Assembly: GCA_963701965.1 (NCBI GenBank) | Contig: OY969695.1 | Coordinates: 4,416,001 to 4,480,000, forward strand | From: an uncultured Gemmatimonadales bacterium | GTDB lineage: Bacteria; Gemmatimonadota; Gemmatimonadetes; Gemmatimonadales; Gemmatimonadaceae | DNA: 64,000 bases | Direction: 5' to 3' | Part shown: piece after piece, positions 55,177 through 56,916 of the stretch | Numbering within the stretch: the stretch's first letter is position 1 | How the letters are laid out: the number at the start of each line of letters is the position of its first letter | Program-made: the position numbers and the translations under genes | The notes under the pieces: model-generated | The model's input: only the letters and a program-made list of their open reading frames with translations | The model's database searches: none | Told to the model about the DNA's origin: nothing

Positions 55177-55207
55177 GACAAGCTCCGGTCCAGGTAGATA
55201 GACATTG

Positions 55208-55286
55208 AACATATACCTGGCTACGGTATCTGTCAATGATTTGTCCTAGACATAGATTTGACAGACGGGTCCATGTATCGTATCCT
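55208..55286. promoter_or_regulatory. Divergent sigma70 promoters with overlapping 11-bp-spaced GACA repeats
   Basis: Minus strand TTGACA(55236)-N17-TATGTT toward groES; plus strand TTGACA(55258)-N17-TATCCT toward the 55330 ORF; no CIRCE sequence. Confidence 0.7.
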
Positions 55287-55329
55287 TGAGGGGTCAGATC
55301 GCCCCATCGGCCCTCGTCAGGAGCGTTTT

Positions 55330-55617
55330 ATGGAAGCCCCTCTGCGCGAAATCACGTTCAGCCAGACACACCGACGCACGCACAAGCGTCGGAGCGTCGT
55401 CGTGTCCCAGTTCGATGATGCGCAGCCGCACGTGCTGCCCGCCGGCCTGGCGTGGCACTACACGGTGCAGACTGGCAGTGACGGACCGTGGTCGGCTTCG
55501 TATCGCGTCAAGATCGCGCTCGATGCGTCGGATGATGATGTGATCCGGACGGTGGTCCGCGATCTCGCGAGCCTGGGCTGGGACCGCGATCCGGCCGTTG
55601 CGTCGGTCGCCCAGTGA
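55330..55617 (+). CDS. Hypothetical protein (95 aa)
   Basis: ORF with an AGGAG ribosome-binding site downstream of a good promoter; stop overlaps the next start. Confidence 0.6.
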   Translation: MEAPLREITFSQTHRRTHKRRSVVVSQFDDAQPHVLPAGLAWHYTVQTGSDGPWSASYRVKIALDASDDDVIRTVVRDLASLGWDRDPAVASVAQ

Positions 55618-55880
55618 CGCCTGTTCGGGAGTTCGACTTCGAGGAAGACGCGCGCCGGTATACGTGCCGCATCGAGCGTCGGAACGCGATGGCGGAAGCG
55701 TGGTGGTGGTTTGGGGTGTCAGGCGATAAGCAGCGGTATGCGCCGTTTCGGGCGGTCGCTGGCGATACGCAATACGCGATTCAGTCGCGGATCTCGCTGT
55801 ACTACCGCGAGCTCATGGCCCGCCGCGCGATGCCGGCGGTCCCGTGGCACCGGCGCGGTCGGCCGGCTAGTCAGACCTAG
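55614..55880 (+). CDS. Hypothetical protein with an AWWWF...QRYAPFRA motif (paralog of 59796-60161)
   Basis: Clear end-to-end similarity to the 59796 ORF. Confidence 0.75.
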   Translation: MTPVREFDFEEDARRYTCRIERRNAMAEAWWWFGVSGDKQRYAPFRAVAGDTQYAIQSRISLYYRELMARRAMPAVPWHRRGRPASQT

Positions 55881-55890
55881 TTCGGCCGAG

Positions 55891-56880
55891 TCAGGGGGTC
55901 AGGTGGATCATGTCTGACACCGATTGGCCGGCGACACGGAGCGCCAGTCGCAAGTCGGTGAGGTTCTCGATCACTTTGACCCCCGCTCCTCTCAGCTCCG
56001 AGGCGATCGTGAGCGCGCCGGCTCCGCCGACGAGCAGCGGCACACGGGCCGCGAGTTGGACACGCAACGCCCGTAGTTCCTGAATCAACTGGTCGTGGCC
56101 GCCCGTGCCCGGCACGGTGACGCTCACCGCCCGGGCCGACGTGCTGGCGGCGGCCACGGCAATCTCGCTCACGGGTACGCCCGGCCCGAGATACGTCACC
56201 CGCCAGCTTTCAATGGCGGCCACCGCGGTCGCCATCACGGCCTCGATCTCGTGGCGGTCGCCCACGGGCGTCGCCACGAGCAAGTTCGGGGCGTCGCCCG
56301 AGACGATGAGGATGGGCACGATCCCTTCGATGACCCGGCGCAGGGCGACGAGCGCCAGGTGCTCGGCGCCCGGGGCGAGCTGCCCGGCGTCGCGTTCGTC
56401 GCCGATCTGGCGCAGCAGCGGTGTGGCCACGCTCTCGAGGAAGGTGCCCGCGCCAACCAGGGCGGCGGATCGCCTCAGCACGCGTTCCAGTCCGGACGCG
56501 TCGAGCGCACGCGCGCGGGCGCGCGCCGCGGCGACGTCATCGGCGGTCGCACCAGTCAGGCGCGCGCCCCGCGCTCCACCGTCGGTGTCGAGTCGCCGGC
56601 GCGCTTCCTCATCATCGCGCACCAGGCGCGTCAATTCCTTCGTGGGCAGCCTGGCAACCTGTGAAATACCGCGGCCGGCGGCAGTCGCCAACGCCATGAG
56701 CCGCAGGCGCTCGATGTCGGCGTCAGAGTACAGCCGCCGGCCACCCTCGGCCCGCACGGGCTCGATGGCGCGATAGCGCCGCTCCCAGACTCGAAGCACA
56801 TGCGGTGTCAGGCCGGTCCGCTCCGCGGCCACACCAATGGGATGATGATCGAGCTCCAGATCTCCATCGCTGTCTATCAT
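55891..56880 (-). CDS. MerR-family regulator with a cobalamin-binding-like domain (CarH/LitR-like)
   Basis: HPIGVAAERTGLTPHVLRVWERRY...RRLYSDADIERL; AEH and DRHEIE motifs; Rossmann segment YLGPGVP...LVGGAG. Confidence 0.88.
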   Translation of the reverse strand: MIDSDGDLELDHHPIGVAAERTGLTPHVLRVWERRYRAIEPVRAEGGRRLYSDADIERLRLMALATAAGRGISQVARLPTKELTRLVRDDEEARRRLDTDGGARGARLTGATADDVAAARARARALDASGLERVLRRSAALVGAGTFLESVATPLLRQIGDERDAGQLAPGAEHLALVALRRVIEGIVPILIVSGDAPNLLVATPVGDRHEIEAVMATAVAAIESWRVTYLGPGVPVSEIAVAAASTSARAVSVTVPGTGGHDQLIQELRALRVQLAARVPLLVGGAGALTIASELRGAGVKVIENLTDLRLALRVAGQSVSDMIHLTP

Positions 56881-56916
56881 GTGTCAATGGTATAACATTG
56901 ACATAGGCTAGTCAAC
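56871..56916 (-). promoter_or_regulatory. Probable leaderless promoter and autoregulatory operator of the CarH-like gene
   Basis: Minus strand TTGACT-N17-TACCAT-N6-ATG; 11-bp-spaced TTGACA/TAGACA repeats; 23/33 identity to 55231-55263. Confidence 0.6.

Follow-up and report, generated by a model that had tools for sequence, protein, structure and literature searches.

We analysed a window of 64,000 nucleotides (nt) from an uncultured Gemmatimonadales bacterium (GenBank assembly GCA_963701965.1, contig OY969695.1), corresponding to C1:4416001-4480000 of a genome assembled as a single contig of 5.12 Mb (5,116,566 bp) and estimated to be 95% complete. The locus of interest comprises a groES-groEL operon on the minus strand, an operator-like element (site A), two small genes on the plus strand (hypA and hypB) and, convergent with these, a gene for a regulator resembling the B12-dependent photoreceptor CarH and its paralog CarA, which carries a second element (site B) over its own promoter (Table 1). 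The comparative results show the shared element to be real and conserved, and point to a CarH/CarA-type system with a likely chaperonin target and a probable loss of light sensing.

Table 1. Features of the chaperonin-regulator locus, in window positions.
Feature	Position	Strand	Details
Intrinsic terminator-like hairpin after groEL-2	53153..53188	-	15-pair stem, T tail
groEL-2, 545 aa	53211..54848	-	84% identity to CIRCE-controlled groEL-1 (C1:395820-397457)
groES-2, 102 aa	54868..55176	-	
Predicted sigma-70 promoter, groES-groEL	55208..55236	-	-35 TTGACA 55236-55231, 17 nt, -10 TATGTT 55213-55208
Site A, 33-bp operator (predicted)	55231..55263	both	two 11-bp-pitch GACA units per strand
Site A units	55236-55231, 55247-55242	-	
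Site A units	55247-55252, 55258-55263	+	
Predicted sigma-70 promoter, hypA-hypB	55258..55286	+	-35 TTGACA, 17 nt, -10 TATCCT
hypA, 95 aa	55330..55617	+	without Pfam/NCBIfam family
hypB, 88 aa	55614..55880	+	Gemmatimonadota-type family
CarH/CarA-like regulator, 329 aa	55891..56880	-	MerR-type DNA-binding domain, four-helix bundle, Rossmann domain
Site B, 44-bp operator (predicted)	56871..56914		units 56887-56882, 56876-56871 (-); 56898-56903, 56909-56914 (+)
Predicted regulator promoter	56887..56915	-	-35 TTGACT, 17 nt, -10 TACCAT

The two elements had been described in an earlier reading made from the sequence alone (the sequence-only reading) as a pair of 33-mers identical at 23/33 positions without gaps, with GACA-type units at an 11-bp pitch on both strands, and both observations were reproduced. 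When both strands of the genome were searched, site B was the top non-self match to site A, and site A was the top match to site B other than the locus itself; the next-best matches outside the locus reached 21/33 for site A and 22/33 for site B. The extent of site B required correction, as a fourth unit (56871-56876) lies beyond the earlier 33-mer and extends the element to 44 bp, with all four units sharing one 11-bp lattice. One of the four site A units (AGGACA) and one site B unit (TAGTCA) are imperfect relative to the TnnACA repeats of CarH operators. With the -35 hexamer masked, site B matched site A at 17 of the 27 remaining positions, the best match outside the locus being 13 among the 545 33-mers starting with TGTCAA; with both ends masked the values were 13/21 and 11 within the same set. 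The inner palindrome of site A, TGTC-N3-GACA (55242-55252), does not belong to a sigma-70 element. The two sites are overlapped by three predicted promoters of sigma-70 type, each with a 17-nt spacer, where 0.7 would be expected from shuffled sequences, and the -10 of the groES promoter reads TATAAT in G001 and G004. Site B covers the -35, the -10, the predicted start site and the start codon of the regulator gene; the predicted promoter places the start site at or adjoining the regulator ATG, so that a leaderless mRNA is likely. An inverted repeat at 55191-55220, where the interval of the earlier note began, was not kept in three same-genus relatives and was set aside.

The operators bound by CarH and CarA consist of 11-bp repeats in tandem, each with a TnnACA core, that overlie the -35 and -10 elements (PMC9304148, PMC8156234; these and all papers below are cited from parts of their text). 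The corresponding TGTC...TGTC...GACA...GACA lattice was also observed upstream of related regulators within the order. A 22-bp matrix trained on 130 upstream regions of regulators outside the clade of the window regulator placed site A at ranks 1 and 3 and site B at ranks 4 and 5 in the bacterium's own genome. Three matches exceeded 22 bits, compared with none in the reversed control, and the scan picked up no carotenoid, photolyase-type or fasciclin target. The site at rank 2 (C1:3344897) was absent at 5/5 homologous loci and is likely a chance match. A 44-bp matrix built on 13 sites of the window regulator's own clade, all from other genomes, scored site B at 72.5/35.9 and site A at 20.2, the next match in the genome reaching 5.7 and the control maximum 7.2. 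Allowing one mismatch, the 33-mer pattern was found in 21/301 family genomes and 15/401 phylum genomes, two samples that overlap, and in none of the controls; the unpublished genome G063 supplies one of the 21 matches and one Hsp20-linked regulator (L072). A CarH-like gene lay within ~1.5 kb at 24 of the 34 pattern-match loci that were fetched, and most of the other matches lie in front of genes that typify such neighbourhoods (fasciclin, DUF2867-SDR and the like). As judged by sequence, sites A and B are CarH-family operators.

The arrangement is conserved among relatives, for which the sequence-only reading had proposed a synteny check. The cassette of groEL-groES, site A, hypA-hypB and convergent regulator is kept in 3/5 same-genus genomes (G001, G003, G004) and on the metagenome contigs L087, L089, L090, L092 and L095, as determined from gene calls by a simple in-house predictor with Pfam checks on selected proteins. 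The site A pattern was matched at 10/10 loci with an intact hypA-upstream region. Among nine distinct site A sequences, the eight inner core bases outside the -35 hexamers were invariant, compared with 5/10 spacer and 6/34 promoter-spacer bases; since the locating pattern itself demands the cores, the informative count is the 10/10 and not the core invariance. G001, G003 and G004 possess a third operator, similar to site B, in front of an operon that encodes a lipoprotein, a KaiC-like ATPase and, where it could be seen, a sensor kinase. In L087/L088 this operon and the regulator gene are immediate neighbours in divergent orientation, and the plus-strand half of the window's site B probably survives from the operator of this KaiC-like operon.

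The sequence-only reading had noted the absence of the controlling inverted repeat of chaperone expression (CIRCE) near groES and had suggested a search for another, CIRCE-controlled groESL. Both points were borne out: the only match of at least 14/18 in the genome is a perfect CIRCE at C1:397806, which precedes another groES-groEL, and the gene for HrcA lies at C1:4641362. The window therefore holds a second copy, groESL-2, and the housekeeping copy keeps CIRCE. The ratio of nonsynonymous to synonymous substitution rates (dN/dS) of groEL-2 to its orthologs was 0.08-0.09. At least two groES genes were present in 27/301 family genomes. We surveyed 60 groES loci, comprising all copies in multi-groES genomes minus the CIRCE copy of the bacterium's own genome, plus five single-copy genomes. 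CIRCE was found at 38/60, all with operator scores of at most 11 bits, and the operator (26.8-30.9 bits) at 6/60, none of which carries CIRCE (G000, G001, G003, G004, G068 and G171, from three genera); 15/60 showed neither by these tests and 1/60 was without upstream DNA. The G171 regulator gene and a lipoprotein-groES-groEL operon with the operator are immediate neighbours in divergent orientation; in G068 a lipoprotein-groES-groEL operon carries the site, the regulator being 33 kb distant with further sites around it.

A GroEL tree of 48 sequences, from which the G171 groEL (cut by the contig end) and loci of fewer than 400 residues were left out, required two gains of the operator label, a single gain being recovered in 0% of 200 bootstrap trees. 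The G068 operator copy was sister to the CIRCE copy of its own genome (100/99), and the window clade grouped as sister with copies carrying CIRCE, among them two that lie 2-5 kb from hsp20/CarH-like loci (G131, G235). The trees indicate, at sequence level, that the operator was recruited to groESL at least twice separately. The groESL copies of G131 and G235, which lie near regulators of the Hsp20-linked clade (clade C, below), carry CIRCE and no operator, and were not counted as support. In a listing of sequencing runs there was no RNA run containing the organism, and one run with a small share gave only groEL of other organisms.

The Wx9EH motif is reported to be critical for adenosylcobalamin (AdoCbl) function, and published work takes it as defining (PMC8156234, PMC9304148, PMC11796333). 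The DNA-binding domain of the window regulator reads R30-V-W32-E-R-R-Y36, in agreement with RxWERRY, and scored 54.3 bits against Pfam MerR_1. Compared with Thermus thermophilus CarH, Arg163 replaces Trp131 of Wx9EH with E173-H174 kept, and D208-R-H210-E-I-E213 stands for the lower motif ExHxxG, with the His kept and the Gly replaced by Glu; neither Wx9EH nor E/DxHxxG, both expected in CarH, is thus intact. The Pfam B12-binding score was 34.4 bits (cut-off 32.1), with S253 and G285-G286 kept, and the NCBIfam CarH score was 91.7 bits against a cut-off of 400; the match to the T. thermophilus CarH structures (PDB 5C8D/3WHP) had an E value of 4e-20. An AlphaFold2 model of the regulator from four sequences was of low confidence (predicted local distance difference test, pLDDT, 54) and was not used. 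Lacking the Trp and the Gly of the B12 motifs, the regulator is predicted to be independent of adenosyl-B12 and light, and is probably not a photoreceptor.

The motif survey covered 146 distinct regulators, in which we distinguished the clade of the window regulator (clade A), a clade from G068, G171, G017 and G086 (clade B) and a Hsp20-linked clade (clade C). Clade A retained the Trp in 0/15, EH in 3/15, the lower His in 11/15 (Gln in 4/15) and the Gly in 0/15 (Glu in 15/15), and clade B the Trp in 0/5, EH in 0/5 and the lower His in 1/5. The Trp was present in 12/12 of clade C and in 109/114 of the remaining regulators, of which 104/114 had all features and 0/114 had groES nearby. In a tree of 53 regulator sequences with the motif columns removed, clades A and B were separate, each with 100/100 support; clade A was nested among intact Gemmatimonadota CarH-like proteins and clade B was sister to clade C. 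This tree contained no myxobacterial CarA. The dN/dS of the C-terminal domains was 0.16-0.34, and that of the DNA-binding domain 0.06-0.10; the purifying selection on the C-terminal domains argues that the regulator gene is not decaying. The window regulator is the only CarH-like gene found in its genome, and both CarH-like copies found in G171 are degenerate. What is new here, as read from the alignments, is the motif loss across the groESL-linked regulator clades A (Trp and Gly) and B (Trp).

Sequence comparison demonstrates how the operator is built, that it is conserved, that it overlies three predicted -35 elements, that it and CIRCE exclude each other at groES, and that the B12 motifs have been lost. 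On the analogy of CarH and CarA biology, it is very likely that the regulator attaches to the repeats and keeps RNA polymerase off three promoters, namely its own and those of groES and hypA. The winged-helix domains of the 329-aa protein would bind the GACA repeats that sites A and B carry at an 11-bp pitch, and the bound regulator would sterically occlude the polymerase at the three predicted -35 elements; the 17-bp spacers argue for repression rather than MerR-type activation. Given such binding, the lack of an AdoCbl or light switch appears quite likely. The combined reading, that the CarH-like regulator represses itself, groESL-2 and hypA-hypB in a manner predicted to be independent of adenosyl-B12 and light, is likely. 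The proposal of the sequence-only reading that this regulator controls itself, the chaperonin operon and two small genes is well supported by the comparative data. The AdoB12 or light control that it implied is not supported: the regulator has Arg for the Trp and Glu for the Gly, and its whole clade shares the loss of both residues.

The releasing signal is the most tentative part of the circuit. The repressor might be released under protein-folding or general stress if its cofactor-less sensor domain were labile or dependent on the chaperonin, and such release would create a feedback loop similar to that of HrcA, on which GroESL exerts feedback. The housekeeping groESL would stay under HrcA and CIRCE, with the groESL-2 circuit supplying extra chaperonin on a different trigger. 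A labile or chaperonin-dependent domain was favoured, at less than even odds, over an antirepressor or residual cobalamin sensing; apo-CarH of Bacillus megaterium is a molten globule (PMC8156234).

Several observations weigh against the proposed repression of groESL-2, or limit it. Genomes of the same genus are not independent, and only two or three independent events tie the motif loss to groESL; L161, L159, L241 and L234 have lost the motifs in the absence of groESL. Motif-intact paralogs with near-identical operators are encoded in G001, G003, G004 and G068 and could co-regulate the sites, so that light input by cross-talk is possible there. In L086 another gene replaces groES, the groES-side -35 and -10 have decayed and site A is kept with its inner cores; L085 has neither site nor groES, and the basal clade A members L096/L098 face a KaiC-like operon. 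groES adjoins only 8/15 clade A regulators (several contigs being short) and 1/5 of clade B. This patchy presence indicates that the chaperonin is a lineage-specific, losable member rather than a core target. Both ends of site A are, as the sequence-only reading had cautioned, TTGACA hexamers that serve as the predicted sigma-70 -35 elements of divergent promoters, and a second GACA unit exactly 11 bp from TTGACA is not enriched over other spacings (6/545, 3 of them at this locus). The similarity of the sites could be a side effect of two sigma-70 promoters placed back to back in AT-rich intergenic DNA; the earlier reading had named an explanation by shared sigma-70 elements, together with lack of conservation, as grounds for refuting its proposal. 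We regard such a side effect as extremely improbable, since the match remains top-ranked with the -35 hexamers masked, the inner cores are conserved without change, only those 6/545 TTGACA hexamers have a partner unit at 11 bp, and the pattern tracks CarH-like genes phylum-wide. A narrower role, in which site A derives from a regulator/hsp20-hypA intergenic region and serves hypA-hypB only, groESL having landed nearby with a back-to-back promoter and no meaningful control, fits L086, the same 33-bp layout between clade C regulators and hsp20-hypA, and the closeness of the CIRCE-bearing groEL-2 relatives in G131 and G235 to such loci. It is nonetheless distinctly improbable: the groES -35 is itself one operator unit, so that occupancy would block it, CIRCE is absent at groESL-2, and G068 and G171 have a separately derived groESL operon downstream of the same operator with no hypA, the GroEL tree covering G068 only.

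Two further explanations accept the repression and differ in its release. Cobalamin or another tetrapyrrole might be bound via His210, with a response to light, redox state or B12 supply. The retained E173-H174, H210, S253 and G285-G286 and the Pfam score just above its cut-off suggest that some cobalamin binding may persist, which also counts against full B12 independence, and CarA binds B12 yet does not need it (PMC8156234). The absence of the Trp and the Gly throughout clade A, the rarity of EH, the His-to-Gln changes, the critical role of Wx9EH cited above and the lack of carotenoid, photolyase-type or fasciclin targets in the own-genome scan make this quite unlikely. Release by an antirepressor, as CarS releases CarA (PMC8156234), with hypA, hypB or a protein of the KaiC-like/kinase operon as partner, gains from the finding that, in this genus, hypA homologs lie under the operators of clade A as well as clade C regulators. 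The candidate partners fit it poorly. The net charge was -3 to +7 for hypA and +2 to +6 in most hypB proteins, not acidic as in CarS; hypB is predicted to form four strands and one helix, with no SH3-like match listed, and its family has 148 clusters, with some copies located away from the regulator; in G131 and G235, homologs of hypA adjoin arsR without the operator; and clade B loci are without hypA and hypB. By these sequence-derived properties (charge, predicted fold and lack of linkage elsewhere), hypA and hypB are poor CarS analogues, and an antirepressor is unlikely. Complex prediction of the regulator with hypA gave 0.00, 0.35 and 0.00, which counts neither for nor against it. The hypA family occurs in 6/301 family genomes with a dN/dS of 0.35-0.37, and no relation of hypA to hypB was detectable. 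Fold searches with hypB turned up nothing clear: the best Foldseek match, PUR-alpha-like, had an E value of 0.26, and the best VIA match a Z of 6.2 with a root-mean-square deviation of 8.2.

The predicted repression by the CarH-like regulator can be compared with known systems. It shares with CarH and class I LitR (T. thermophilus, Myxococcus, B. megaterium) the RxWERRY MerR-type domain with helix bundle and Rossmann domain, the tandem 11-bp TnnACA operator over -35/-10 (PMC9304148), predicted autoregulation and, in its relatives, the divergent layout. It differs in the degenerate Wx9EH and ExHxxG, in repeats arranged as two inverted tandem pairs, and in its predicted targets, which are groESL, small genes and the KaiC-like operon instead of carotenoid genes. 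CarA of Myxococcus xanthus, a B12-independent CarH paralog released by CarS, likewise descends from CarH through loss of the Trp in Wx9EH, and shares the operator type and the B12-independent repression predicted here (PMC9304148, PMC8156234). CarA keeps a canonical lower-ligand motif and has lost the Trp with four flanking residues, whereas here Arg or Val stands in place of the Trp, and the lower motif is degenerating as well; the origin is separate, in another phylum and twice, and the target is a chaperonin. No CarS-like acidic SH3 protein was identified at the window locus, a statement that covers the locus and not the genome, as no genome-wide CarS search was made. HrcA/CIRCE and HspR/HAIR resemble the system in placing a repressor over the groES promoter, and HspR is also of the MerR family; the window regulator scored only 35.9 bits against HspR in NCBIfam (cut-off 105) and has a different C-terminal domain and operator, and the window copy is without CIRCE in a genome where HrcA has its own CIRCE-bearing groESL. 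LitR of classes II-V (Pseudomonas, Burkholderia) are also CarH-family repressors not using B12; these lack one or both halves of the B12 domain and control photolyase/UfaM-type genes, whereas the window regulator keeps both halves (PMC9758184). M. xanthus MXAN_4468 acts with HrcA on a second chaperonin copy, a similar arrangement of an extra regulator, although CIRCE is retained at that copy and the extra regulator is of the response-regulator type (PMC9040617). Among the open-access papers listed in literature searches, no link of CarH or LitR to groESL or Hsp20 was found. The locus offers a testable regulator-operator pair for chaperonin control beyond HrcA, HspR and sigma-32, in a phylum that has been little studied. 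It would add protein quality control to the pigments and DNA repair already covered by CarH-family regulons, through groESL in the B12-degenerate clades and Hsp20 in motif-intact ones. The repeated loss of B12 contacts provides a natural experiment in photoreceptor repurposing.

At L045, L047, L058, L242-L245, L247, L325 and other loci, a CarH-like regulator with intact motifs stands divergent from hsp20 and the operator recurs; 10/12 clade C regulators face hsp20. From its sequence context, such an hsp20 is a candidate light-controlled small heat-shock protein. A wider scenario is possible and doubtful: a B12 photoreceptor family may at least twice independently have shed its chromophore contacts, kept its operator and taken a duplicated groES-groEL in place of CIRCE, becoming a folding-stress repressor with the emptied B12 domain, either heat-labile or dependent on the chaperonin, as sensor, with the motif-intact sisters and their light-controlled Hsp20 as an intermediate state.

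Further operator-bearing loci were noted. A lipoprotein family with HPW-x5-GQCG and no Pfam hit (L239:16124-16624) recurs under the operator, and may resemble the Cu/Zn superoxide dismutase fold. The homolog in the bacterium's own genome (C1:2189684-2190169) has upstream only the inner TGTCAA-N10-TTGACA pair at 11.7 bits, a weak candidate for a third site. In G068, C3:748001-781929 (L235-L237) holds five operator sites in 34 kb around a degenerate clade B regulator, together with groESL, a B12-dependent radical SAM gene, a phosphoketolase, a cold-shock protein and initiation factor 1 (IF-1); a sixth site is at C3:303912.

Among the 15 other CIRCE-less groES copies, 13 carry two boxes of the type TTGACCA-N2-TGGTCAA over the -35 and the start site (L315-L322, from G076 twice, G176, G134, G187, G099, G009 and G246, and L277, L296, L301, L303 and L305); the boxes are half-degenerate in three copies, and one copy is cut by a contig end. 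They match the Escherichia coli RutR consensus (PMC2475637). A TetR/BetI-type gene directly follows groEL in 8/10 of the fetched regions, the other two ending inside groES, and these loci are, by their gene order, candidates for an autoregulated groES-groEL-tetR operon and a parallel rewiring. One groES (L297, G235:C3) has a CIRCE with a spacer of 10 nt, not 9.

Within the window, a hypB paralog at 59796-60161 is 67% identical, with no operator seen upstream, and Rfam gave no match within positions 50000-61000. An amidohydrolase-like gene just downstream of groEL (51635-53150) is apparently split over two frames (53087-52680, 52759-51635). A similar membrane protein family is represented by a fragment (45380-45913) and a full copy (58411-59655), 13 kb apart, whose C-terminal parts are alike.

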